Assembly: GCF_963676685.1 (NCBI RefSeq)
Contig: NC_092354.1
Coordinates: 58,218,001 to 58,282,000 of the forward strand
DNA from: Mytilus edulis
Taxonomy: Eukaryota
Reading direction: 5' to 3'
DNA: 64,000 bases
The stretch's first letter is position 1. Every line of letters begins with the position of its first letter. The translations under genes were made by a program, and so were the position numbers. Below the pieces are notes generated by a model. That model searched no databases. It was not told the DNA's origin and worked only from the letters and a program-made list of their open reading frames with translations. Shown here in pieces: positions 8,182 through 60,866 of this stretch.

Positions 8182-10010
8182 TTATATATACACATTTTTA
8201 ATAATGCAATTTTGGAGAAGGTAACCCGTAAAATAGCCCCAATCGCCACTTATAGTTTGCGATCCTCGGCCTGGATAATGACGCACTTTGACAACATCTC
8301 CCTTGTGCAGATATATTACGGCATTCATCGATCCTGCATTTGCTCCACCGCTTGGTGCATGTCCTTTCGATATTTCGCTGCTGTTCTTTACAATTTGAAG
8401 ATGTAAAGATGTACCTGTCTGTAGAAATGTACAGGCAAAGAAGTATATTCCATCAAAGGGTGCTGTGAAATGACCCGTGTGTTGGTTATATGCTTTACCA
8501 ATATTGGTTATCACGTGATCAAAAATTACAGTCTGTGTCGAACCAAGGGTTACTTGTGGAGTCAATCGTGCATGAAAGGCAACTTTATTGGAAGGAATCG
8601 CTGAACCTGCTATTTTAAAAAAATTAAAAAATCAACGGTTGTATCCACTTCTGATGCATACATGTCTTATTCACATCAAGTCTAAATTAAAAAAAAAATT
8701 CATACTTGTAAATGTATTTAGATGTATGTCTTCTTTTATGAATTATAATTATGTGATATTTGCTCTACTCTTGAATTGTTTTTATATATTTCAATTTTAT
8801 TGGAATATGTCCTATATCTAAATTTATATAATGTATTTTTCACAATAAATTCTTTTGTTACACATTATTTAAAAAATTACAACTGGGAATTTTATTGTGA
8901 AAACTTAAATTTGGTCAGTCTTTCAAAAATCACATTCTCAATATTGTTTAGTGACTGAAAACTGTATGCATAACTATTTGTTTTACTTCTATAAAACATT
9001 TAACTTACTCTCTCCAAGAAGTCTGTTGGTTCTCTGAAGAGTATCAATTGCTTCTATTACTGCTGCTTTTGCTTTACCTACAAAATATACAATAAACTCA
9101 TGATAGATACCAGGATTGCAATTTTGTATTGGCGCCAGACGCTCGTTTAGTCTATAAAAGACTCATCAGTGACGCTCAAATCGAATAATTTTGAAAAGTC
9201 CAAATCAAGTACGACGTAAGAGCTTTGATGACTTAAATTCAGAAAAAGTTTATCCACATCCCATCCAGCTAGAGGTTAGATTAGATTATTGTGAATACAA
9301 TATACTTGATCTGTACCATTTATAATTCAGACCTGTTGCAAAATAAATAAAATGTTTCAGAGCTATGACCATCAAAGATGAGTGATGTAGCAGGATGAAA
9401 TTCCAATTAAACATGTTAGCAAAACAAATTAAATAGTCGTTATGTTCAAACAGTGAGTAAATAATTAATCTTTAACCAGAAAAACATCTTTCAAATCACA
9501 TTATTATGTAATATGGACGATTACGATTTTGCGCTTAATAATTTAAGAAGAACTCATACGTTATATGTAAGATAAGATAAGACAATTTATTTTAAGTCGG
9601 GTTATATAAAATACTACAAACATAAGCTCTGTAGAGCTTTTGCCGACTTTAATAACAATAACAACACATAAAATATTAAGACACATAAGACAGATACAGC
9701 ATACACAATAGACAATATAAAGACAGCTATATTGTATAAGCAAAGGTCATATATATAAATCAAGCACAAGCAGGTAAAGCACTACACTAGATTATAAGCA
9801 CATGCACAGCAGACAAATAAATAAGATGAGCTATTTCTAAAAGTCAGGCCCATTGTCGTCATATTGACATGAAAAACACGTATATCATTATTATGTAGAG
9901 AAACGCAGCTTGGACTACTTACCAATTTTTCGGCAACAGTCATCTCCACCATAAACATATGTAATACTTATGCATGTTATAAACAATAGGCTAATAAAAA
10001 TATACTTCAT
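8182..10010 (-). CDS. Secreted C1q-domain-containing protein (C1qDC), copy 1, 193 aa, three exons
   Basis: complement(join(8182..8606,9009..9077,9923..10010)); all introns GT-AG, phase 1; signal peptide MKYIFISLLFITCISITYVYG, DDCCRKI, short helix GKAKAAVIEAIDTLQRTNRLLGES, gC1q motifs VAFHA..VIFDHVITNIGKAYNQHTGHFTAPFDGIYFF..LHKGDVV..FTGYLL; AATAAA at 8050-8045. Confidence 0.93.
9131..9177 (-). ncRNA. Type I hammerhead ribozyme with mutated core (GAAA to TAAA), in intron 1 of C1qDC copy 1
   Basis: Minus strand reads gagcgtca-CTGATGA-gtct tttat agac-TAAA-cgagcg-TC-tggcgcc. Confidence 0.75.
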
Positions 10011-17214: not shown

Positions 17215-18364
17215 TTAGTTATAAAATGATGACATGCATCATGTTTATGTTTATGATAATATAACGGATTTACTTCAAATGTGATTTGCATGATATTTCT
17301 TATAATAAAGACCTTTACTAAATACAAGTCGGTGTGCAATTCTTCCAGAAATAGTTTGAGGCCATTACTATCCTGTGTATCGAAACGACTTCCCTCTAAG
17401 TGAAAATATTTCGTTAATATTAGCCATTTTCCTTGTTTGACCGAGTATTAATCAAGCGATATTGCTACCTTTAATAGTTTCTTGTAGAAGCGAGCATATT
17501 TTAATCGATGTATTTTCATGTTGGATGGTGCAAGTTTGTTTAGTTTGTACTCACATAAAAAGGGATGATGCTAATAAAGTACCCAGCTGATACAAAATTT
17601 TTGTTGTGGTGATGTATAAGTTACCTCCCACGTGCACTCTGTCTTATCTTAAGTGTCATTCTCTGTAATTCATGGGACTGTTCACATCAATGTCACAGAT
17701 TTTAAATATCTTTTTCAATATCAAGCCAATATGATGCCCTGATAACAAAAATAACTTTCATTTTTGTTTTGGAGGTTTCTGTTGCCATGGTTACAGGGAC
17801 CATATATATAAGCCCAGTATCAGAGTAGCAAAATCTCAAAATACATAATTTTTCAACTTTCATTATTTTTAACAAATATACATTTTTAGCCTAAATCATA
17901 AGTATACTGAACAAATAAAGGTCTGGAATAACACAATAAAGTAAATAGACATTGACTTGAATTCATTAAAAAAATTAAAACTTGTATATAAAAAGTGCCG
18001 ATTTTGCATTTTTTTCAAAATGCTGAAAAAGGCATTTGGATACATTTTTAGCTGTTACAGGTAAAACATGTACTCGAGATGCGACTATGACAAAAGAATT
18101 GGCATTAACAAAAGAGATTAACAGGAAACTTGAAAACAGTTTTATTTTGCAGCTAGATGTCACATAATATTTATTCTTAGTTAGGTCTGGAAGTTCTAAG
18201 AAACTTGATTATACAACACGGTCTGTGTCTAGAATGAAACTATTTTTTGTGACGCTAAATGAAACTTACAAAACCTTTGAATAGACTTATTAAGAAGGGA
18301 TATAATTACGATACTGTTGTCAAGTCATTAAAGATTGCATATTTTGGCGTTAATATTGAGTCAC

Positions 18365-19029
18365 TGATAAGGTCTTTGCATCGGAACTAAACACATTTAT
18401 TCTAAAAACAGTTGTTGGTATGACACGGGTTATGTTCTTCTCATATATGTTATGATGGTATGATACTAAACCCCTAACGGGAAGGATTGTGCCTGATGTT
18501 CATATGATGAAATCTTAATCTTTCAGTCAGTTTAATTGAAGTCTGGAGCTGGCATGTCAGTTAACTGCTAGTAGTCTGTTGTTATTTATGTATTATTGTC
18601 ATTTTGTTTATTTTCTTTGGTTACTTCTTCTGACATCAGACTCGGATTTCTCTTGAACTGAGTTTTAATGTGCGTATTGTTATGCGTTTACTTAACTACA
18701 TTGGTTAGAGGTATAGGGGGAGGGTTGAGATCTCACAAACATGTTTAACCCCGCCGCATTTTTGCGCCTGTCCCAAGTCAGGAGCCTCTGGCCTTTGTTA
18801 GTCTTGTATTATTTTAATTTTAGTTTCTTGTGTACAATTTGGAAATTAGTATGGCGTTCATTATCACTGGACCAGTATATATTTGTTAAGGGGCCAGCTG
18901 AAGGACGCCTCCGGGTGCGGGAATTTCTCGCTACATTGAAGACCTGTTGGTGACCCTCTGCTGTTGTTTTTTATTTGGTCGGGTTGTTGTCTCTTTGACA
19001 CATTCCCCATTTCCATTCTCAATTTTATT
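18365..19029 (+). repeat. Abundant interspersed retroelement-type repeat
   Basis: Shares 'catgtttaacccc' and 'cctgtcccaagtcaggagcct' blocks with 6630-6660, 11570-11590 and 28290-28345. Confidence 0.55.
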
Positions 19030-19211
19030 ATCAATACTATGGTCATTTTATATAATTTCCTGTTACAAAACTTTGAATTTTTCAAACAACTAAGAATTTT
19101 CTTATCACAGGAATAAATTACCTTAGCCGTATTTGGCACAACCTTTTGGAATTTTGGGTCCTCAATGCTCTTCAACTTTATACTTAATTATCTTGATAAT
19201 ATTTTTGATCT

Positions 19212-19257
19212 GAGCGTCACTGATGAGTCTTATGAAGACGAAACGTGCGTCTGGCGT
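19212..19257 (+). ncRNA. Type I minimal hammerhead ribozyme
   Basis: gcgtca-CTGATGA-gtct tatga agac-GAAA-cgtgcg-TC-tggcgt; predicted cleavage after C19251. Confidence 0.88.
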
Positions 19258-19567
19258 ATTAAATTATAATCCTGGTACCTTTGATAACTTTTTACACCAA
19301 TGGGTCGATGCCACTGCTAGTGGATGTTTCGTCCCCGAGAGTATCACCAGTCCAGTAGTCAGCACTTCGGTGTTAACATGAATATCAATTATAGGGTAAT
19401 TTTATATAAATTTCCTGTTACAAAACTTTTAATTTTTCAAAAAACTAAGAATTTTCTTATCACAGGAATAAATTACCTTAGCCGTATTTGGCACAACCTT
19501 TTGGAATTTTGGGTCCTCAATGCTTTTCAACTTTGAACTTGTTTGTCTTGATAACTATTTTGATCTT

Positions 19568-19612
19568 AGCGTCACTGATGAGTTTTATGAAGACGAAACG
19601 CGCGTCTGGCGT
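19568..19612 (+). ncRNA. Type I minimal hammerhead ribozyme
   Basis: gcgtca-CTGATGA-gttt tatga agac-GAAA-cgcgcg-TC-tggcgt; palindromic stem III; predicted cleavage after C19606. Confidence 0.88.
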
Positions 19613-20923
19613 ATTAAAAAAAAATAATCCTTGTACCTTTGATAGCTATTTACACCACTGGGTCGATGAAACTGCTGGTGGATGTTTCGTCCCCGAGGTT
19701 ATTACCAGCCCAATAGTCAGCACTTCGGTGTTGAGATGAATATCAATTATATGGTCATTTTATATAAATTTCCTGTTACAAAAAGTTTAAAAGGCCAAAA
19801 AAGTACGAAGTTGAAAACAGTACTGTGGTCTTGTAGGTGTTCTTTTTTTCTCTTTTGAGTTGTTTTGCACTGGTCATGATGGCGCCCGTTGTGGCTTCAA
19901 GTAGTTTTGGCAATACGTTTAAGAAAAGAAATGACATGGAAAAATTGAAACAAGATAAAAAAAAATCGAACTGCATGAGTATACATGTATTTGGACATAT
20001 TGGTAAATTTTAAATAACAAATTTATAAACACCTTTTATCATGTTTATTGAGTTTATAAATCTATATTATTAAAATTAGATGAATAAATTGAATGAGTGG
20101 CTTAATATTTATTTAGTTGTCTATCTGAATTCTATTATTGGCACTCTCACCCATGGTGACATTTGTAACCACATGGAACGTCAGATATTTTATATTTACC
20201 AGTTATGTTCATGCATGTTCCTTTGTATCTGCATTTCATGAACATCTTGTTTGTATTCCAGCATCATGCACTAACATGTTTTCCAATGAGTATTTTCAAT
20301 GTTGCATCTCTTAAGTTCTTTGTCACTATATCATAACAGTACTTTAATTATAAATTATATGTTACTCACATGATAGTTGATACCCGATTACGGTCAACAA
20401 AATCATTTAAACGTCATATAAACATTCGATAATAGAAATATACATTGTGAACACATAGTCAACTTTAAATCCAAGTTTGAAAAACCAAGTCTTCATACAA
20501 ATATATTAAGGTATATCGTGTTTTTCTAAAGCAGGGATATCATGATTTAGTTTCTCAGATGTGATTTATTCCGTTTAATAAAATATTTGTTGTAATATCC
20601 AGTTTTATATAGTTATTCAATTTATCCAGTTAATGTATCAGTCAAGTTCGACAAATGTCTTCTTTTCAACCGTTGTGTGTTGATTTATGCATTCAATCAA
20701 GTTTTTTTATAGAATCTAAAAAATCGATATGTTCTTGCCAGTAAATTTTGTGGTTAATGGGATTTTAAATATTTATCTCTCAAAGGTTTCTGTTTTTGTT
20801 TGAAAATAATAATTGAATTTTTGAGCGTTTCTGGGGAAACATTCTATATACACACATATGTCGCTGCTATACATATCAAATATACAAAGAACATTCTCTA
20901 TAAACATTTTTAATAATGAAATA

Positions 20924-21321
20924 TTAGAGAAGATAACCCGTAAAGTAGCTCCAATCGCCATGTATAGTTTGCGATCCTTGGCCAGGATAAAGACGCACAC
21001 TGACAACATCTCCCTTGTTCAAATATATTACTGCGTTCATCGATCCAGACGCTGCTTCACCACTTCGTGCATGCCCTTTTGATATATCGCTGCTGTTCTG
21101 AACCATTTGAAGATGTAGACGTGTACTTCCGTCCTGTAGAAATGTACAGGCAAAGAAGTACATTCCATTAAAGGGTGCTGTGAAATGACCAGTATGTTGG
21201 TTATATGCTTTACCAGCATTGGTTATCACGTGGTCAAAAATAACAGTCTGTAACGAACCAAGGGTTGTAGAATGTACCAATTTTGCATGAAATGCAACTT
21301 TACTGGAAGGGATCGGTGAAC
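20924..21321 (-). CDS. C1q-domain terminal exon, copy 2 (intact ORF, no cognate upstream exons found)
   Basis: Acceptor gtagcag|GT at 21321, phase 1 as in the paralogs; SPIPSSKVAFHAKLVHSTTLGSLQTVIFDHV...YFTGYLL*. Confidence 0.85.
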
Positions 21322-21635
21322 CTGCTACCAACAAAAAAAAATCACTAATATAGTGTTATTAAATGGTTGTTTCTGTATTGCTGCTGTTATAGATACGAGG
21401 TTAGCTGTTTTGGATCCGAGACTCGAAGAATCGAGAGGAAATACAGTTAATCGAATATCTTTGAAAGGGCGAATACAGAAACAGCCTTTTCATTACACTT
21501 TTATTAAATAATCTTAATTCTTCAATTAAATAAAGCAACTTACATGGAGTTGAGGAAGTTACAGAAATTCCTTTTTGAACTTGTCTTTTCACATGTGTGA
21601 TAGATTTACATTTTCAGTTGTATTCTTTGATTTCT

Positions 21636-22047
21636 CGTATTTGGCACAACATTATGAAATTTTGGAGACTCAATGCTCATCAACTTGGTACTTGTTTGTC
21701 TTGATAATTTTTTGATCTGACCGTCACTTATGAGTCTTATGAAGACGAAACGCGCGTCTGGCGTATAAAATTATAGTCCTTGTACCTTTGATAACTACTT
21801 ACACCACTGGGTCGATGACACTGCTGGTGAACGTTTCGTCCCCGAGGTTATCACCAGCCCAGTAGTCACATTTCGATGTTTACATGAATATCAATTATAT
21901 GGTCATTTTATATAAATTTCCTGTTAGAAAACTTTGAATTTTTCGAAAAACTAAGGAATTTCTTATCCTAGGAAAAGTTTACTTTAGCCGTATTTGGCAC
22001 AACTTTTTCGAATTTTTGGTCCTCCATGCTCTTCAACTTTGTACTTG
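21636..22047 (+). mobile_element. Retrozyme-like repeat (~1.1 unit) with a core-mutated hammerhead at 21721-21764
   Basis: Same family as 19030-19785; core reads CTTATGA instead of CTGATGA. Confidence 0.8.
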
Positions 22048-24539
22048 AAGTTACCGGGACCGATATTATAAAATAGCTAGATAAAGAAGATCTATGACTA
22101 AAAGTTTCAAGAGTCAATTCTAATGTTATTATCTAATAGTCACAATTTTATATGATAGTATAAAATCAGCGATACTTTACAAAATAAACTAAAAAAACAA
22201 ATGAAATATAAATCAAAAAAGACAATAAAACCACCAATAAATAAAAAGCTGCACCACGAGCGTCTTTTGAAATTAACATAATGTTTTTAGAATAGAAAGG
22301 GGGTTGTACAGGAAGTCATGCGAAGTATATTCTGTCTCATTTTTTATTCCTGTTAAATTGGAAATGCATATAAGAGACAGAAAAAGAAATTGCTCACAAC
22401 ATGCTTTATATGGTGTTTTTTTTTTACCAAAAATCTCAATACAAATTCAATAACTTAATAATAATATAAAGAATCATTATGAAAAAAATATACAGATCTT
22501 ATTATAATATAACTGACAAGTGTGCGAAAGTTCATGCAATAATCATAAATAGTTTTTGAGATACGGCGCGACATGTGAAAAAACACCACCCCTGTTTTAG
22601 TTACAAAGTCCCGTAACTCAATTTAAATAAATGTTTCCCCGACATATGTCGTAAAATAACACATGAAAGGAAAATGTTTATTAAAAAATTAACATTAAAT
22701 CGTGTTAAAGGCTGTTAAATACAAGAAAACATCGCAACTGCCACAGACTCTGACATTTTAAAGGAAAACCTCTGTTCAAACCAGAGACACAGTGATGATG
22801 TAAAGAACATCCTTGTTTTTATCCTGAACCAACCACAATTTCAAACTTGTTTATATTTTTTTTCCGGTTTTGTTGATCACAACTTGTACAGCACCTGTTC
22901 TTGATGACACAGCATCAACGTGATGGTATTTTTTACGAAAGAAAAGGAAGAAGTAAATGCAAAGTCTTAAAACATAGGTTTAATAGCACAATAGGTTGTG
23001 TACACTCATTACCTGTTTGATCATGCGATGTAGATATTTCCCTAATTCTTCTTTCATTCTCGTATATGTACATGGCCATCAGTGCTAGAAGAATAGCATT
23101 ACAGAACAAAATTACATAATCCATGTCTTTGAACGGATTTTTTCAAAACAAATTCTAGTGTTGAGGATATTTAAAACACAATATGGTGTGTATTTCGTTG
23201 ACTACAACTATACACAACACATAATCAAAGGAGGAAATCAGTATTCAAAATAATCAGTCAGTTAAAACAGGTAGAGTTCATTCTACATTTAAACCTAGCG
23301 TGTATCGATTGATAATTAAAAATTGGTTGTCGCAATGATTAGAATGTAAAATTATCGATTAGAGTTTTTTCTTATAACTGTGTTTTTTTTCCTTATATAT
23401 TTGGCCTCGAGCGCCATAGAAGTCCAAACGCACTTCTGGTACCGGTTGCGTTATCATTACCACTGGGTTGATTCTTTTCTGTTACAGCCCGATGTTAAAT
23501 TCAGCTCAGTATGTAGTAGTTCTGATTTGGCATGCACATACTGATATCGTTTTTATTGACATTCGCCTCTCAACAAAATTGAAACGGTTTTAATTAGGTG
23601 ATATTATCTTCCCCATGCAAAGCTCTGATTCATTTTCATTGCATGTTGCTCTATTTTAGATCATGTTGGATTTGATCAGCTCTTCAACGTCTACATTAGT
23701 TTTGTATTTGATTTATATATTTTTTTGCCTCGAGGGGACCACGAAGACAGATTAATTGTCGACTTGCTCATCGGGTGCAGTTTAATTGAAACATATTCAC
23801 TTTTAAATTGACAAAAAATATTTTTTGAGATTTTGTTCTTTCCGTGAAAATAATCGAACATCTACACCCTGCGAAAATAATCCGCTATACGGTATTTGTA
23901 TGTACATATGCAAGATGTCAGATGCTTGCCCCGGGAAGCTTATTAGAACCTTTATTTTTATTTTCGATCAATTTATCAATTTACAGTATACAATAGAACA
24001 GGAAAAGATCTAGGCTTAAAATAACGGTATACTAGGTAACAAAGATTTACTGTATAAAAGAATGATCATCGAAAGATAGTTATCGCTGACGAATAATTGA
24101 TAATCAATATGCATTTGGTGATTAAAATTCACATCTTTAACTTTACTTGAAGCATTTCGTTTTTTAATTGAGATATATATGTTGTGTGCATTGCAATGCT
24201 AGGATACAATGCTGCGATATCTTTTTGTATCGTGTAACTTTATCGTGTTGTCATGGTTGCTTCGAGATTCAAAAGAAACTTACCGTACAAGGTTTATACA
24301 TGTACAGTTGACTATTACGATTGAAACACCTATTATGTCATAGTTTTTAATTTGTCATGGAGAACTGGTGACGACAGATTTATTGCAAAAAGATGCCTAT
24401 ACTACTAAAAAGGACAACAAATGTTACTTTGTCCACGAAAACCAACTGTCTATGATTATCTTTTCAGTTTTTAAAAATAATATACATTATTTGTTATTTT
24501 TATACTTAGCAGTCAGGTGAGACGGTTAGTGTAATATTA

Positions 24540-28705: not shown

Positions 28706-29138
28706 TCAACATATGTGGCTGTTCGTAGATGCTCATGAAGGGTAAGCAGATCCTGTCTCGCCAACTTTTTTTCAGAGCATATACTAAAACATAATTTTAT
28801 TGTATTTTGATAATGCATTAGTCGACGTTGCTGTTTTCTTTATAAATTGTATATTTTAGTTTTCGAACGAGTCAGTATTGATGAAGTATGTTGTACTGTT
28901 CAATAAAATCGCGTACTTTCTTCAACATATGTGGCTGTTCGTAGATGCTCATGAAGGGTAAGCAGATCCTGTCTCGCCAACTTTTTTTCAGAGCATATAC
29001 TAAAACATAATTTTATTGTATTTTGATAATGCATTAGTCGACGTTGCTGTTTTCTTTATAAATTGTATATTTTAGTTTTCGAACGAGTCAGTATTGATGA
29101 AGTATGTTGTACTGTTCAATAAAATCGCGTACTTTCTT
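28706..29138. repeat. 216-bp tandem duplication, apparently identical copies
   Basis: 28706-28921 repeated at 28922-29138. Confidence 0.93.
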
Positions 29139-29441: not shown

Positions 29442-30888
29442 TTAGATACGGTAACCCGTGAAGAAGCTCCAATCGCCATGTATTATTTCTGGTCCAAATC
29501 CAGGAAAATGACGCACTTTGACAATATCTTCCTTGTGCAGATATACAATTGCATTCATTGCCCCTGTCTGCGATCCGCCACCAGATGCTGCGTGCCCTCG
29601 TGATATCTCGCTGATGTTTTTTACCATTTGAAGATGTAATACAGTTGCATTATATGGTCTAAGAAATGTACAGGCAAAGAAGTAAATTCCATCATAGGGT
29701 GCTGTGAAATGACCCGTATGTTTGTTATAGGCTTGACCAATATTGGTAATCAACTGATCAAAAATTACTGTCTGTCTTGAGCCGAGGGTTATATACGGTT
29801 TCAATCTTGCATGAAATGCAACTTCAATGGAAGAGATTGGAGAACCTGCTTTTATAATTAAAAGGAAAAAGAAAACAATCAATGTTTGTACAATCTATGT
29901 AATCAATTATTGAACTAAACTACATGACTTAGTGGTTGTTAACAGCTTGTTTCACGATGTTTAGTTTTCCTTATGTTTGAGTTGCTGTGTTATCTATATG
30001 TCTGTTGTTAAAATCGGTGGAACGTTTTGTATTTCTACGTCAGTAACTACTGATGATTATCGAATACTTCCATTTACGTATTCTTACTTAAAGACTAAAA
30101 TGATTTACTAGTCTAAATGAATAAATTCCATTTAAAATTATGAAATTTAGACTGAGTATAGATTTATATAGCAGGATACACTTCAAGATGATGCTTATCC
30201 TGTTGTCGCACACTGTTTCGTTTGTTTTGATATTTTTATTTACAAACGCTTTACCGAAGAATTTTATGGAATTGACTTTCAAGCTGCTTGTTCTATCAAT
30301 AATCATATTTTGCTGATTGCTGTGAACATTGCTTGTGTTCTCTTTATATTTTTTTATAAAAAAAATCATCTTGCTAAAACTTACTCTCTCCAAGCAGTCT
30401 GTTGGTTCTCTGCAGTGTATTAATTGCCCCTAATAATGCTGCCTTAGATTTACCTAAAATAAGATGATTTTTACAACATTTGTGTGTAAACTTTCATACC
30501 TGGCCTCTACAATTGAAGCTTCTAATACAATATATTTGTAATATTACTTTGAACTCTTAGTCAGCATCAACCCTTAATCAATGAAACCAGGATATGGAAT
30601 CGTTATAGGAGAAGCCAATAGTACAAAGACATGTACAGGTCATAAAAACCAGTTTCAAACGCACAATGTTCAATCAAAAAATAAATATGTTACTTTTGAC
30701 AAGATACTTTTCTATCAACCTAAGAAATAATTTAAAACTTATGTTGTAGACTACAGATGGCATTTCTTTGATTTTAAAATGAAAAAAATCAAACAAGTCA
30801 AGTACATACCAATATTTCGGCAACAGTCCTTCTCACCATAAACAAGCAAAATTGTACCGAACAGTATGTTAATATATAGGTTTCTCAT
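29442..30888 (-). CDS. Secreted C1q-domain-containing protein (C1qDC), copy 3, 183 aa, three exons
   Basis: complement(join(29442..29845,30385..30453,30810..30888)); GT-AG phase 1 introns; MRNLYINILFGTILLVYG-EKDCCRNI-GKSKAALLGAINTLQRTNRLLGES, then gC1q VAFHARL...TGHFTAPYDGIYFF...FFTGYRI*. Confidence 0.93.
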
Positions 30889-44399: not shown

Positions 44400-45060
44400 T
44401 ACAGTAAAAATATGTAGAAAGTTGAAGACATGTAAAAAAAGTTTATCCTCGTTCAATATTCGAATGAATACTGTTTGCTTCACGCCCATCGAACTTGAGA
44501 TAAAGGATAAAACAGATACAGTTAAGTTGTTCTCATATTTTGACTTTCATCAAGAAATATTGACTATGGGGTTGGTTTAAAATTAAAACTTTACAACAAA
44601 AGAGATGATTGCTGCTTTCCTATTGTGACCTTTCGATTTCTATGTAGAAACATTCCAACAGAGCCTGCATACGGAGTATATATCTTCCAGTTGATACGAT
44701 ATTCCAGAGTTTATAGTTCCTATCATACTTTCCTTGATAGAGGTTTGCAGCTCATCAGGAAGCTATTAAACTAAGAGTTCCAAGTGGTGAAGTTGAAAAC
44801 ATTCCTTCGTAAATTTTACGGACGCCATCACAAGTTGGTTGACCGTTGTGTAGTAACTGTTTCACAAATGACAACGGACATGTTTCAGTTGTCGTAACTA
44901 AAACATCCTGAGCAACACGACGGGTGTTACATTTATAACAGGATCTGCTTACCGTTCCGGAGCACCTGATATCATCCCAGGTATCGGTGGGGTTCTTGTT
45001 GCTCAGTCTTTTGTTTTGCATGTTGTGTTTTGTGTACAGTTGTTTGTATGTAGGTTTTTT
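44400..45060 (+). mobile_element. Degraded Penelope-like RT C-terminal fragment and 3' region
   Basis: ELEIKDKTDT..FPIVTFRFLCRNIPTEPAYGVYIFQLIRYSR, homologous to 47280-47500 and 59925-60040. Confidence 0.7.
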
Positions 45061-46482: not shown

Positions 46483-46759
46483 AACGCCTGACTGTTCTTG
46501 AATTAAAAAGTATAAAATCAGATATCATTCCGTTTTTTCTTGTGGCTACATTTTTGTATATGCACATGCATTAGTTTGCTTTTTTTATAGAAACATTGCT
46601 ACAGTGTTTAATTAAAAAAAAATGTTGAAAATTACTTCCGAAATGACAATTTTAAAAGTTTCTAAAATTTTGTGCGCATGACATTACAAATGACGAAAAT
46701 GAAAATAAAAAGCCGTTTAGCTTGGCTTGATAGCATACGACAGATAAAATACTAATGAA

Positions 46760-47670
46760 CTTGAGGGCATTTTCAAATGTCGATCTTTCTCTAAAATCTT
46801 ATTCTATCAAAACCTTTGATTTTTCAACCATTTATAACACCATTACCCATGTAAAATTGAAAAATCGTCTAAAAGAAATATTCCACAATGCTTATTCAGT
46901 TAAAAATGATAGCATAATCTACAACTCTATTTCGTTCGATACCATACAGCGTATTTTGTAAAAAGAAAAAGACAAAGCAAGAGGAGCAAGTGATCATAAT
47001 GCAGGAGTTTCTTATTTTTCTTATTTCAACATATTTTTTGAATAAGGAGGTAGAATCTTTCAACAAATTGTCGACATTCCTATGGGAAAGAACTGTGCGC
47101 CTCTCTTTACCGATCTCTTCTTATTTTTATATCAGTCGATAATCTTTAAGACAAAGAAAAGACAAGAAGATCAAAACAGCCAGATCATTAAATTTTCAGT
47201 TCAGATATATTGATAATGTACATTTCATTAACAATCCAAATTTTTCTGATTGGGTCCCATTAATATATTCTCAGAAATAGAAAATAAAGAAACAATAGAT
47301 AAGGCTTCCTCCGCCTAATGCTAGGCGTATACCTCGAATTCGACATAAATGGTCATCTCATATCCAGACTATATGACAAACGAGATGATTTTAATTTTGA
47401 TTTATCAATTTCCCTCACCTTAACAGCAATATACCAACTTCACTTGTGTATGGATTATACATTTCCCAACTAATTCGGTATTCAAGAACTTACAGCTGCC
47501 ATTCAGACTTTATAAAACGTCACCAGTGTCCGATCTGAAAGTTGATGAACCAGGATTTTGTCAAAGAAAGTCTCGTCCTTTTTCTAAAAAAAGTTCATCG
47601 GAAGATACTAAGACCTTGTTAATAAACATTCCGTATCAACTTCACAAATAATACATGATGGTCTTGAAAG
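46760..47670 (+). mobile_element. Degraded Penelope-like reverse transcriptase fragment
   Basis: SIKTFDFSTIYNTITHVKLK, IPMGKNCAPL, FRYIDNV; colinear with 59440-60040; many lesions. Confidence 0.85.
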
Positions 47671-48817
47671 TACATATTATAGGTACTGAAAGATAGGCAA
47701 AGGATACCAAAAGGACTTTTAAACTAATGTTCGGTGGAAGCCAAGGCTCCGTATTGAATGTCATACTTTGACCTATCAGTGTTAACGTTTTATACATTGG
47801 GACTTGAATGGAGAGTTGTCTAACTGGCACCCATACCATATCTTCTTGTTTATATACTAAGTCGAAAATAAACTGACAAAGTCATGGCTAAAAAAAAAAA
47901 AAAAAAAAAATACAGACAAACAACTGTACACAAAATACGACATAGAAACCCAAGCCTAAGACTAAGCATCACAAACCCCACTAAAATTGGGGGTAGTCTC
48001 AGGTGTTCCGAAAGGGTAAGCAGATACCGCTTCACATGTGACAACCGTTATGTTGTTCGTATTAGCACAAACTAGGTGTGCAGTCTAATTCAAATTAAAG
48101 AACATTAAAACACGTAGTTAAGATGAGTAGCAGCGGCCCATCCCTTTCCCTCCGAATTTGACTTTCACGAATAAGACTTGTCACCGAGTTTGTGATTTGA
48201 CAGCCTTTATATTTTGATATATAAAGTAAACAAATACGTGGGGAATGGCCCTATCCCTTTCTTTACAAGTTTCAAATCAGTATTTAATGAGCAGTCTTAA
48301 AAATTAATTTAGACCTTCAATTGCATCTTTATGAACTGAATACCGACACAATTATTGTATTGACATAAATTTTGATATAAGACGAACTGGACATAATGCT
48401 TCATTCTTATAAAAAAAAAACTTACAATCATTTGCCGAACAAAAACAAGTAAAGAAAGAACTAGTCCTTTCTTTTCTTTTTTTGGCGATTACCTGATCAC
48501 TTAAAATTTTGTCTACTAAATGATATAAATTTTTAAAAGCATCTTAAATTCACAAACAACTTTCATTTCCGTCAAATTATTGCTTTTGAGCGACAAGTAT
48601 GCTAAATTTCAAAATAGAGGCTGAAAAAAGGAACGTGTTGTTTTTTTACATAAACATTTTGTGTTTTAGTAAACAAACATTTACCTTTTCAAACTTCAAA
48701 CAAAAAATGCAAAAAAGTGTTGCTTGTACTTTATTGCCTATATCTGTATATTTTATAGTTAAATATATATATATATATAAGATTGTTGGGTTGATGTTTA
48801 GACGAGTTGTATACTAT

Positions 48818-53551: not shown

Positions 53552-54783
53552 AGGATCACGTGCCAAATGTCTACACATGAACCATTATGAAAGTAGAGGA
53601 TACAGACAAATGTCTACACATGAAACATTATGAAAGTAGAGGATACAGACAAATGTCTACACATGAACCATTATAATAGTAGAGGATACAGACAAATGTC
53701 TACACATGAACCATTATGAAAGTAGAGGATACAGACAAATGTCTACACATGAACCATTATGAAAGTAGAGGATACAGACAAATGTCTACACATGAACCAT
53801 TATAATAGTAGAGGATACAGACAAATGTCTACACATGAACCATTATAATAGTAGAGGATACAGACAAATGTCTACACATGAACCATTATGAAAGTAGAGG
53901 ATACAGACAAATGTCTACACATGAACCATTATGAAAGTAGAGGATACAGACAAATGTCTACACATGAACCATTATGAAAGTAGAGGATACAGACAAATGT
54001 CTACACATGAACCATTATAATAGTAAAGGATACAGACAAATGTCTACACATGAAACATTATGAAAGTAGAGGATACAGACAAATGTCTACACATGGACCA
54101 TTATGAAAGTAGAGGATACAGACAAATGTCTACACATGAACCATTATAATAGTAGAGGATACAGACAAATGTCTACACATGAACCATTATGAAAGTAGAG
54201 GATCACGTGCCAAATGTCTACACATGAACCATTATGAAAGTAAAGGATACAGACAAATGTCTACACATGAACCATTATGAAAGTAGAGGATACAGACAAA
54301 TGTCTACACATGAACCATTATGAAAGTAGAGGATACAGACAAATGTCTACACATGAACCATTATGAAAGTAGAGGATACAGACAAATGTCTACACATGAA
54401 CCATTATAATAGTAGAGGATCACGTGCCAAATGTCTACACATCAACCATTATGAAAGTAGAGGATACAGACAAATGTCTACACATGAACCATTATGAAAG
54501 TAGAGGATACAGACAAATGTCTACACATGAACCATTATTAAAGTAGAGGATACAGACAAATGTCTACACATGAACCATTATGAAAGTAGAGGATACAGAC
54601 AAATGTCTACACATGAACCATTATGAAAGTAGAGGATACAGACAAATGTCTACACATGAACCATTATGAAAGTAGAGGATACAGACAAATGTCTACACAT
54701 GAACCATTATGAAAGTAGAGGATACAGACAAATGTCTACACATGAACCATTATGAAAGTAGAGGATACAGACAAATGTCTACA
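53552..54783. repeat. Minisatellite, 43-bp unit, ~28 copies
   Basis: Unit caaatgtctacacatgaaccattatgaaagtagaggatacaga, highly homogeneous. Confidence 0.98.
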
Positions 54784-55779: not shown

Positions 55780-58125
55780 TTCCGGTTTACAAAATTTCAC
55801 TATCGGTTTCATTGAATTCAACCATACTTCAAACTGATTCCCAAAAATAAAGTGCTAGTAATTTTCACTTGAAACTAATGTTAACATTGCTACTTCCGCT
55901 TTACAAAAGGTAACTTCCGGTACATGTTCTTTAAGGTCATGTCTAAAACTCATTTTAAACACCTCATATACCAATAAGAACACAAAAGGTCAAAATCTAG
56001 AACGTCAAATTTACATTTGACATTGACATCAATTTCAAGATCATTAACCAAGAGCCTTAAATCAAAAGAGCATAGGTCCCTTTTATAAATTGTTAATGAC
56101 TTATATCACCATACAGCTTATTCAATCTATAAGAGGAGAGAAAACTCTCATTAAATGTCAACGTACCCTTGCAACCAAAATTTAGGGGTAACAACATGTC
56201 GCAGCTAACAAAATAGTAAAAATATTTTGTCGCTTTCTTAAACGGTTTCTGTTAAATGAAAAAAAGCTAAATCAAAATTTAAAATATGACCTTAATATTT
56301 ACCTCATTTTCATTATGATGGACCAAGAACCTCAAATCAGAAGACCCTAGGTCTCTATGACTTCAGGTTTGTGAGTTTCTATAACATTTCACATATGTTA
56401 CATAAAGAAGGGGTAATAACTTTCGTATAGAGTCTATTGAACGATTCGGTCAAATAACGGTACATTCTGAAGATATAACGAGCAATTTGGAAAAATAAAT
56501 TTGTCGCTTTCTTTTCCGGTTGTGAAGGAAAAGTCATAGCAAGAAAAACAGTGTTCGGTTAAACAGGGTCAGTTTCAAAAGCGTATACACTGTACGATAT
56601 ATAAACCAAAAATCTAAGCGACATCTTTTGAAACATCAATACAGCGCAAGAAAAAAATAAGGCAGAGGAAGAAATAAAAAAAAATTAAATTAAAAACCAA
56701 TTGTTCAGAAAACTATTGAAGGTCTTTCCACCCCAAATAGACATATATAGACAGGAAAATATACTATCTTGGTTTAAAGTGTATACTCTGGTCTCAAATA
56801 ATAGCTTAAATTATACTGATTTCGAAAATATATGTTTTTTATATACTTTTGCTTGAAATAAAAGAGATAAGTAGCTACCTCCAGTAAAACAAAAATTACT
56901 CCCGGTTACATTTGAACCTTACTTCACAATGATTCCAAAAATAGAAAGTTCTAGTAAATTATACATGAAAATAATGTAAAAATGGCGGCTATTTCCAGTT
57001 TACAAAAGGTCACTATCGGTTGACCTCCTTTTAGGGCATACATCTGTAACCTAATGTAAAAGACTCATTGACTTTATCTTGAACCATCAAAAAGTTAGAG
57101 CAAAGGTAAAAATCTGGAACGTCAAATCAAACTTACCTTGACCTCAATTTCAAGGTCATAAAACAAGGGACCCTAGGTCTTCACTATATACTGTTAATGA
57201 GTTATATCACCATACGTCTCATTTAAAATATAAGAGAGAAGAAAACTTCCATTTAATGTCTACGTACCCTTTGAAACAAAAATTATGTGTTACAACATGT
57301 CTCTACTAACAATTCTGTAAAAAATATTTTGTCGATATCTTATACGATTTCTGAAAATTAGTTATAACAAGCCAAACTCAGAATTTAGAACATGACCTAG
57401 ACCAAGCTCCTCAAATCAAAAGACCCAAAGTCTATCTTATGGTTTATGAATACATTTCACTTATATCAAATACAGAAGGGGAAATAACTCTCATATGGGA
57501 TCTCTATACCGCTTCGTTCAAAATTAATCAAAACATCCTGAGGATATAACGAGCAATTTGAAAAAAATAAATTTGTCGGTTTCTTATACGGTTGCAAAGT
57601 ATTATAAATAACAAGAAAACAGTATTCGGGGAGATAACTCTTACATGGAAAAGTAATCGGTTAAGCGGTGTTAGTTTCAAAAGCGTATAAACTGTTCGAT
57701 ATTATATATCAAATACCTATGCGACCTCTTGCAAAACAACCAAACAGCCAAGGAAAAAAATTAGGCGGAATAAAATATAAAATAATTAAAACCCAATTGT
57801 TCAGGGAACCATTAAAGGTCTTTCCACCCGAAACGATATATTTTGATATAAAAAATAATAAATTCTGGTTTGAAATGTCATTTTCAGTGCCAAGTGATAG
57901 CTTGTTCGCTGATTTAAAAGAAAATATATGGGTTCTATACACTTTTGATTGGAATAAGGGAGATAATTGGTTACTTCCGGTTTGAAAAATGTCACTTCCA
58001 GTATCATTTGTTAGTTATATTGACACTGATTCCAAAAATATATGGTTCTATTTACTTTTACATTAAATAAGTAAAAAAAATAGCTAACTCCGGTTTAAAA
58101 AACATTACCATCGGCCTAATGTAAA
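55780..58125. repeat. Diverged ~1.1-kb tandem repeat (two units plus shorter 'acttccggttt' subrepeats)
   Basis: Anchors ttacaaaaggt at 55901/57000 and ggtctttccaccc at 56721/57817. Confidence 0.75.
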
Positions 58126-58134
58126 AAAGTCTTC

Positions 58135-60043
58135 CAAATCTAGATCACCCTCTGTGAGCTTTGATGACCTTCTTTCACATCTTCATCATCCACTAGGGTT
58201 ACATTACATCGAACTATTCTCTTTTCACTGCCAGTTAATTTTCTTACACGTTTGAGAGATTATGCACTTGACAAAGGAGGCACCAATACATGTTCTGCAA
58301 TATACAGACTAGTCAGTATTATTTGTGATGTAGCTCTTTTCCGTCTTTTCAAACCAGTAAGAACGGAACCTTTACACGAGGAAAAGAGGAAATTCCTTCC
58401 TGTTGATTTTGCCAATAGAGGAATTGATGCGATCAATATCTGCAACGTTCTACATCACAAGGAGGTAACATCTAAAATTCCTATATATTTTCAAAATCAG
58501 TCTGTTCCTATTGTATCCTACAGTTACACCAAAACCATTGCATCTAAAATATTTAACTATAAACAAGCATTGCAGGACCTTGACTTAGAACAATACACAA
58601 AAAATCCTCCGACATGTGACTATTCCCAATCGCCTTATAATTACAGCCCCTCTGGTCATGTTATAAATGGGGATCTAAACATAATTCAACATGAAAATCT
58701 CCGAAAGGTGATTTCTTATGGTCCTAAGTTTAGAGAACCCCAACACATCAATTAGAACCAAAACTTCAAAATAATTATGATTTTCATTGAGGACTACACC
58801 AGAGCATGGGCTTAGCGAGAAGAAGTTGAACTGAACACTTTGTCAGAATGGGTTAGAACTATCAGGTTTCTGATAAAACGTCGCATTCACAAGTTGAAAA
58901 ACTGTGTGAACGATCGACCAAAGTCTGTTTTCAGAGACAATGAGGCCATGAAATGTCTATCATCTCTTCATGATAAGTTTGTTGTTGTTCCTGCGGACAA
59001 AGCTTCAAATAATATTGTCTTTGTATGTAAATCGTATTACTACGAATGTCTTGTAAAAAAATTAGGTATAAAGGAGCAATCAGGTTATCCCACATACAAA
59101 GCCATATCATTTGACAAGGATGAGATTTTAGCAAATCATAAGTTCTTCATGGCTTCAATAAACATTACATTAACACCAAATCGGAGGACTTACCTTGTTT
59201 GTATTGGATACCAAAGCTTCAAAAAATTCCGTACAAACAACGGTATATTGCTGGCTCATCTTCATGTTACACAAAAGAATTGTCCATTAGATTGACTAAA
59301 ATTTTGTCCGCAGTGAAAAAGGGTCTTCAGAAATATTGTGAAACTGTTTACTCGCGTAGTGCTATTAACCATATGTGGATTCTTAAAAATTCTAAAGAAC
59401 TTCTAGACAATTTTAAATCTCGGTCTTTTTCTGAAATTAGTTCTATCAAAACTTTTGATTTTTCAACCCTGTATACCACCATTCCCCATGTGAAATTGAA
59501 AAATCACCTTACAGAAATAATCCACAATGCCTTTCAACATAAAAATGGTAGCATACGCTATAAATTTATTACTTTGGGATTTCATAAGACATATTTCGTT
59601 CATAGTGACAAACAAAAAGGTAAAACATGCTACACAGAAGAACAAGTGGTCAGTATGCTGGAGTTTCTTATCGACAACATATTTGTTGAGTTTGGAGGTA
59701 GACTTTTCCAACAAATTGTCGGCATTCCTATGGGAACAAACTGCGCCTCTTCTTGCCGACCTCTTCTTATTTTCTTATGAATCGGAGTTCCTCCAGACAC
59801 TTGTCAAAACAAGAGGATCAAAGAAGCCAGATTATTTAATTTCACTTTCAGATATATTGATGATGTTCTTTCCATAAACAATCCGAACTTTTCTGATTGG
59901 GTTCCATTAATATATCCCCCAGAACTAGAGATTGAAGAAACAACAGACACGGCTTCCTCCGCCTCGTTTTCATAGTTATATCTTGAATTTGACTTACACA
60001 GTCATCTCAGTACCAGAATCTATGACAAACGAGACGAGTTTCA
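58135..60043 (+). mobile_element. Penelope-like retroelement ORF (RT), truncated and frameshifted
   Basis: GPKFREP, VVVPADKASNN, YWIPKLQKIPYKQRYI, SIKTFDFSTLYTTIPH, GIPMGTNCA, FRYIDDVL. Confidence 0.9.
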
Positions 60044-60866
60044 TAGCACCATTTTATTTTAATTTAGTCTTTTTATAAAATGTTTTTTTAAATTTGAGGA
60101 TACATGGTTGAATTAATTTTAAAAGCTTGTAAACAGGAAAAAAAGTGTTGAGAAATTTGTTTACTTTTACTATTCCAGCTTTGTGCAGTACTACTGATGG
60201 TCATTTTTTTTAAAAACAATGAAATGTTATGTGAAATTTTGCTGGTTTACTGGACAGCATAAAACTTTATTCATATGAAGTATTTCTTTATTTGAATATG
60301 TTGACACAAATAAATTATGCACACTTAAAAAAAATACTCAAATTTAACAAAGACTGATATCATAAATATAGGAAAACAATGGTGGTATTAATTTTAGTAA
60401 TAATACAATAGTAAACATGGTAAAGTTAAATATATACATTGAAATTTTGACAATTTTCATTATTGACTTATAGTTCTTTATAGATTGAAAATTTGCACTT
60501 TATGTTGTTTTTATACAATTTACTAATGAATTGTTAAGCCGATGCTTTTATCATGTTTATTAATTTTGATATGCTCTTACCATGGTCACTGCATTACAAA
60601 ATTTTGATTCATTTAAATATCAATATATATTTAATTTTCTGTTTAGGAGTTATGGTACTTTATAAATATGAAAATAGGCATAGAATGTTGAAGGTCATAA
60701 ACGCCTGAAAACGCGAAACTCAATTTGATGTTATTTAAACTTTACAACTTAATTTTTGTTACATTTTAATGTATTACAATGTACCTTAAAATTTGTCATA
60801 AATGTACAACATGTACATAGACAGATAAAAAATTTAATAAAGAAAAGTGATGAGTAGGAATAGTTA

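Follow-up and report, generated by a model that had tools for sequence, protein, structure and literature searches.

Penelope-like elements (PLEs) have been proposed as partners of retrozymes mainly since hammerhead ribozymes occur in both. In mussels, about 5,000 hammerheads were reported within repeats of 350-390 bp (Cervera and de la Pena 2020, PMC7229834). According to the accessible part of that paper, the repeats give rise to abundant circular RNAs, which are ligated by RtcB, and mussels also carry hammerhead-bearing PLEs. A review of 2020, in the part available, states that animal retrozymes hold no conserved motif from which an autonomous partner could be deduced (PMC7761336). For Poseidon PAc of Anolis, priming was described in the available text to require RNA lying 3' of the start site (PMC11167929).

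We analyzed a stretch of 64,000 nucleotides of Mytilus edulis (hereafter the window), in which tandem hammerheads had been predicted. The features on which the analysis rests are as follows.

18261 to 19028, + strand: young Naiad family 1 fragment, 5'-truncated, 768 nt, directly 5' of the retrozyme array (98-99% identical to 39 other scored copies).
19029 to 19785, + strand: retrozyme array of about 2.1 units (BLAST of the unit against the window, repeats, family search).
19214 to 19257, + strand: hammerhead 1, type I, intact core, predicted cut after 19251 (RF00163, constrained fold).
19289 to 19292, + strand: usual end of family copies, +38 to +41 after the cut, internal in the window copy (ends of 66/74 and 68/77 loci, RNA read ends).
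19299 to 19356, + strand: structured motif of unit 1, 11/13 stem pairs kept (homology to the Naiad 5' region).
19569 to 19612, + strand: hammerhead 2, type I, intact core, weakened stem II, predicted cut after 19606 (RF00163, constrained fold).
19657 to 19714, + strand: structured motif of unit 2, 11/13 stem pairs kept (homology to the Naiad 5' region).
19780 to 19815, - strand: inverted piece of another retrozyme variant at the array break (inverted repeat; 36/37 nt against the opposite strand of locus L223).
21636 to 22047, + strand: separate older partial retrozyme copy (Rfam, BLAST).
58098 to 60044, + strand: truncated, broken Naiad family 2 relic without the 5' motif (94-96% to four full-length copies; tblastn).

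The array begins with a partial unit (unit positions 132-355), followed by a full unit (19252-19606) and then by unit positions 1 to about 176, where its 3' side stops and the 36-nt inverted piece follows; the normal 3' end of the family is lost. The GC content is 34.5% over 19001-20000, and open reading frames across the array do not exceed 70 amino acids. Among 29 units compared, the window unit was the most diverged, its nearest neighbor being 91% identical, while most others reached at least 94%. The adjacent Naiad fragment comprises the last 42 codons and the 3' terminal repeat of an element whose relatives have the reverse transcriptase (RT) frame upstream. Judged by sequence divergence, it probably came in after the retrozyme array, because it is 98-99% identical to its relatives compared with 91% for the retrozyme unit. 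The older copy downstream contains a third hammerhead, absent from the original prediction, at 21721-21764 with a mutated core (CUUAUGA). The locus is thus an old, rearranged and decayed copy of a high-copy non-LTR retrozyme and is not special within its family.

The window contains several other elements. An older, degenerate fragment of another retrozyme variant lies at 9138-9250 (- strand); its hammerhead is damaged, and it has the 3' end particular to that variant. A C1q-domain coding exon was found at 20924-21340 (-) (Pfam PF00386, E 1.6e-6), on the strand opposite to the array and about 1.1 kb away from it, with paralogues near 8215-8448 (-) and 29445-29687 (-); on sequence evidence, the three copies suggest a C1q-domain gene cluster. 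Very homogeneous tandem arrays are present at 1036-1297 (50 nt x5.2, 100%), 28706-29138 (216 nt x2, 100%) and 53564-54783 (43 nt x28, 95%).

The two predicted type I hammerheads on the + strand were recovered, each with CUGAUGA and GAAA. Their GUC triplets end at 19251 and 19606, respectively, so that the distance from cut to cut is 355 nt as predicted. The Rfam search proposed for them (Hammerhead_1, RF00163) scored both at about 30 bits (hammerhead 1, 30.3 bits, E 9.6e-5; hammerhead 2, 30.1 bits, E 1.1e-4), but below the gathering score of 34, and a default Rfam scan of the window is blank for this reason. Each of the two has a stem I of 6 bp, a stem II of 5 bp and a stem III of 2 bp with a tetraloop. 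The predicted palindrome of stem III is perfect in hammerhead 2, but hammerhead 1 carries a G-U wobble version. Assignment to the minimal PLE type, in which helix III is absent or reduced, had to be dropped, since all three hammerhead copies possess a stem III, 2 bp long and closed by a tetraloop. In hammerhead 2, a C-to-U change weakens stem II (constrained fold, -2.9 versus -5.5 kcal/mol). The predicted probability of the hammerhead fold was near zero, alike in the window locus and in young copies; equilibrium folding does not tell live from dead retrozyme copies. From the modeled pairing, dimer cleavage at the window locus is possible. It would not be needed, because one cloned genomic copy of the published mussel repeat cleaved on its own, at about 0.1/min according to the available text (PMC7229834).

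Next, we considered the family across the genome (1.37 Gb in 14 chromosome-sized contigs). Searching with the 355-nt unit yielded 8,799 candidates at first look, and the best among the 40 scored was 92% identical. A 23-nt pattern taken from just past the cut had 9,605 exact matches (control, 0), so the family has at least 9,605 copies; a 37-nt hammerhead pattern had 285 exact matches (control, 0). The copies are dispersed and range from monomers to multimers, with lengths from 32 nt to more than 4 kb. Among the fetched loci, 61 distinct units with an intact core measured 346-366 nt, apart from two of 388 nt, and one locus (L149) contained at least 12 hammerheads spaced at exactly 355 nt. The hammerhead-bearing tandem units, their size and their copy number bear out the predicted assignment to non-LTR retrozymes of the mussel size class. 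The class is already known, and the family is probably the published mussel retrozyme family.

Transcription was examined in RNA runs from other individuals, taken by species label; the part of each run covered was about 6%. In four RNA runs, reads of the family were abundant at 88% identity. The three stranded runs favored the sense strand by a factor of roughly 2-15, depending on the bin, whereas the adjacent Naiad fragment displayed no such bias. Reads spanned the ribozyme junction without a dip, a pattern in which short reads from a circle and from a tandem transcript look alike. When identity to the window locus was set to 98%, the depth over the unit body was 0-2, compared with about 300-2200 (sense strand) in most bins at 88%, while the conserved bin 19260-19295 retained a depth of 4-18 (two RNA runs in both cases). 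The window locus is probably silent or nearly so.

The original prediction had presented the locus as a notable source of a 355-nt circle, and two readings of the locus itself have to be weighed at this point. If the window copy were an active source of the circle, its two hammerheads would cleave as a dimer. Consistent with this, neither catalytic core is damaged, pairing between the two stem III segments is possible with a predicted energy of -12.8 kcal/mol, and exact pieces of the locus with its 3' flank occur in one DNA run. However, beside the depth of 0-2 at 98% identity, the family reads found at 88% identity differ from the window letter at near 100% in dozens of positions, and the most diverged of the 29 units sits in an array disrupted at both ends. 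Activity of this copy is therefore quite unlikely, and the claim of a notable source was not borne out for a locus that is old, rearranged and almost without matching reads. It could also be proposed that the Naiad fragment and the array were inserted together, in a single event by template switching. The 3' end of the Naiad fragment meets the 5' end of the array exactly and in the same orientation, and retrozyme sequence is absent upstream of the fragment. Such a joint insertion is nevertheless very improbable, given the unequal ages of the two parts (nearest relative, 99% for the Naiad fragment versus 91% for the retrozyme) and the lack of a same-strand retrozyme directly after any of the 29 other ends of Naiad family 1.

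We then turned to the ends of the family copies, using two samples of loci. The first was picked by the hammerhead pattern, leaving out one edge locus and two duplicates. Its 3' ends fell at +35 to +51 past the cut in 68/76 non-edge loci, or 66/74 without duplicates. The second consisted of fresh loci picked by the downstream pattern, leaving out three overlapping loci, four duplicates and two unfetched places; 3' ends were at +39 to +49 in 71/81 of these loci (68/77 without duplicates), the anchor of this sample fixing only the lower bound of the position. The 5' ends were scattered over the whole unit in both samples. One 3' end combined with random 5' ends is the footprint of target-primed reverse transcription, and we infer that 19289-19292 corresponds to the start of reverse transcription. 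Loose RNA read ends were also found at 19289 (+38), with 423-468 reads per run in three runs, the reads coming from many genomic copies.

The extent of copying upstream of this end bears on the template. The cut site was passed by more than 10 nt in 61/68 insertions, and 17/68 reached more than one unit beyond it; these insertion lengths are lower bounds, since some 5' limits in the second sample are internal deletions. Since a linear cut monomer primed at +41 could be copied for no more than about 41 nt, the templates were for the most part circles or multimers left uncut. At the cut itself lay six 5' ends, compared with 2.5 expected (P 0.04; L286, with an internal deletion, was left out), which hints weakly at cut templates in some cases. 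An accumulation of 5' ends shortly before one full turn was spotted post hoc in the first sample (9/74) and then set as a test for the second; it was not seen there (0/77), and we rejected it as a sign of a circle. No clear excess of target-site duplications was found at 66 loci, where matches of at least 8 nt occurred at 3/66 compared with 3.5% in mismatched pairs, with a slight excess at 7 nt. Pieces on the opposite strand were present in 9/77 loci, about two of them next to the 5' end, and also at L024 and L028. The junction T/ATT was rejected as a target preference common with Naiad family 1, because both elements run on with ATT internally and Naiad family 2 ends at a different T-tract; the letters of the junction probably belong to the element and serve in priming.

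RT relics at 44.4, 46.8 and 58.1 kb had been named as candidate mobilizers. They exist and are Penelope-like, but all are Naiad-type and broken: the first two correspond to RT fragments at 44577-44840 and 46746-47689 (both +), the second being about 79% identical to Naiad family 2. The nearness of dead relics is irrelevant for a helper acting in trans, and intact copies were found elsewhere. An open frame of 1053 amino acids with GIY-YIG, CxC, DKA and RT motifs was present in three of the four fetched copies of Naiad family 2, and the fourth had one internal stop in the frame; a Pfam search with the Naiad protein gave no informative hit. One full-length copy has identical terminal repeats of 554 nt. 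A pattern from the terminal repeat had 1,585 exact matches, and 30/30 sampled ends stopped at one T-tract. A hammerhead core was not found by regular expression in the four full-length loci. Since Naiads lack a hammerhead, the hammerhead is not the link to the helper.

In Naiad family 1, the long frame was broken at the same place past the DKA motif in 4/4 copies (L150, L151, L153 and L154). In L153, the break codon is TGA, and reading it as selenocysteine gives a frame of 905 amino acids. Selenocysteine read-through is described for some Naiads. The 3' part of the Naiad fragment in the window (18390-19028) may hold a candidate SECIS element. Three near-identical copies of this family lie head to tail with a spacing of 3,873-3,874 nt (L164-L166, G000:C8:3785020-3792917), and Naiad RNA may have been copied there as a circle or by tandem read-through.

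What the retrozyme and Naiad family 2 have in common is a stem-loop of 58 nt at unit positions +48 to +105, directly after the fixed 3' end. In full-length copies of Naiad family 2, the T-tract is followed by a homologous motif, and the distance from the fixed end to a common heptamer, GUCGAUG, is 11 nt in both elements. The alignment of the motif reached a local score of 41, compared with a maximum of 28 among 1000 shuffles and 404 window tiles (BLAST E 7e-5). The rest of the retrozyme unit gave no other match to Naiad family 2, and the two Naiad terminal repeats tested had no similarity to the unit. A gapped pattern of the motif had 26 hits in the genome, 25 of them in Naiad family 2, and a GIY-YIG motif lay downstream in 20/25. 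According to the pair count, which took in 42 retrozyme and 16 Naiad variants (with anchors in a script, as MAFFT misplaced the Naiad insert), all 13 pairs of the two stems are kept in both elements, although the stem register was set by eye on the very sequences counted, and the search pattern itself prescribed two of the 13 pairs. Three pairs showed double and three single changes, all the double ones stemming from a single comparison of two lineages. The older copy downstream of the array has the motif at 21806-21863 with 13/13 pairs. Near 19706 (unit 2) and 21855, the second stem has a common compensatory change from C-G to A-U; this change speaks for the stem and, judged from the alignment, points to an older subfamily. 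With Rfam, neither twister nor HDV-like ribozymes were matched at E up to 10 in 18900-22200; the motif is therefore not a recognised ribozyme. Downstream of the fixed end of Naiad family 1, there is a fold of loose similarity whose sequence gives no significant match. Naiad family 2 is thus a candidate helper, and another Naiad may act in its place.

Two explanations of the family as a whole compete with a Naiad helper. The repeat might be a satellite amplified at the DNA level, the hammerheads and the motif being passengers. Long near-identical arrays do exist, and local growth through unequal crossover is discussed for retrozymes in the available text of Li et al. (10.64898/2026.07.22.740005). 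Thousands of dispersed copies with one 3' end and random 5' ends argue against this explanation so strongly that it is hardly credible; for dispersal it is largely refuted, although some array growth may still come from DNA-level amplification. The other explanation is that the family derived from, and is mobilized by, a hammerhead-bearing PLE of the Poseidon, Neptune, Nematis or Hydra clade, in which case the motif would be common to several clades or only ancestral. In Xenopus, homology to known repeats was found for 24 of 57 retrozyme families, and these repeats are almost all PLEs, matched at their terminal repeats, as far as the available part of that study goes (10.64898/2026.07.22.740005). 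Internal priming has been shown for a Poseidon element (PMC11167929, available part), and hammerhead-bearing PLEs are reported in mussels (PMC7229834, available part). On the other side, the sole significant match found for the unit, in a comparison covering Naiads only, was the Naiad motif, whose position relative to the fixed end agrees as well. We regard a hammerhead-bearing helper as doubtful, though still to be reckoned with.

With a probability of roughly two in three, we favor the reading that the locus is an old, rearranged retrozyme whose family is copied by the RT of a hammerhead-free Naiad, which recognizes the RNA motif common to both. The predicted role of Penelope-like RTs as likely mobilizers gains support from this, and the relic at 58.1 kb belongs to the very Naiad family that has the motif. 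Under a Naiad helper, tandem arrays would be transcribed on the sense strand, as the RNA reads indicate for the family only. Hammerheads would release monomers of 355 nt, which a host ligase of the RtcB type would circularize, as described for the mussel family in the available text of PMC7229834. The Naiad EN-RT protein would bind the 58-nt motif at +48 to +105, as its homology and position suggest. AT-rich DNA would be nicked, and priming would take place at about +41, within a short T-rich stretch immediately 5' of the motif; the end itself is fixed in the insertions, and priming there is proposed by analogy with the Poseidon work (PMC11167929, available part). Copying would then proceed backward across the hammerhead junction, on a circle or an uncut multimer, and stop at random, sometimes after several units, as seen in the shapes of the insertions. 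Later, the window copy would have been joined by the Naiad fragment on the 5' side and have been deprived of its normal 3' end.

We also lean, by a little, toward a broader view, in which mussel-type retrozymes are circular-RNA parasites of hammerhead-free Naiads and took from them only the RT-loading signal, the structured motif just 3' of the priming site. The hammerhead would serve to form a circle, by which a unit that can be copied comes to lie upstream of the signal. If so, no cis signal of a Naiad would have been defined before this motif, which could act as a portable tag for internally primed rolling insertion of any circular RNA. The element class is known and the window copy is a fossil, so the significance lies in the helper. 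The open question of the helper is reduced to an experiment with one protein and one RNA, from which the binding and priming sites of a Naiad RT would also be learned. In the literature searched, with most subscription journals and the supplement of the 2020 paper outside that search, a link between retrozymes and Naiads was not found; the link is testable and apparently new as far as this literature goes.

Compared with the non-LTR retrozymes of Mytilus galloprovincialis, as described in the available part of PMC7229834, the family has in common a type I hammerhead with a short helix III, tandem units of 350-390 nt (here 346-366 and 388 nt), thousands of copies, low GC, no coding frame and abundant RNA. 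The likeness lies in size and anatomy, the window locus being a decayed copy, and that part of the paper gives no fixed 3' end, cis motif or named helper. Li, Clavereau and Pollet (2026, 10.64898/2026.07.22.740005) also proposed retrozymes as non-autonomous partners of PLEs. Their proposal concerns frogs and is based on co-occurrence and terminal-repeat homology, and the available text contains no mollusc, insertion ends, motif or Naiad link. Poseidon PAc of Anolis (Frangieh et al. 2024, PMC11167929, available part) resembles the retrozyme in having an internal RT start downstream of the hammerhead and AT-rich targets; it differs in belonging to another clade and in having two start sites that yield a tail of 30-40 nt, whereas the retrozyme has one narrow end. 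Naiads, as far as the available part of Craig et al. (2021, PMC8557442) describes them, likewise combine a fixed 3' end with truncated 5' ends, and their junctions are AT-rich and lack a clear duplication of the target. They encode an EN-RT and are without canonical hammerheads, whereas the retrozyme is non-coding and has only this motif in common with them; the motif of Naiad family 2 has an extra internal hairpin of 23 nt. In both elements here, the structured motif stands directly after the fixed end, and it points to the PLE clade without hammerheads.
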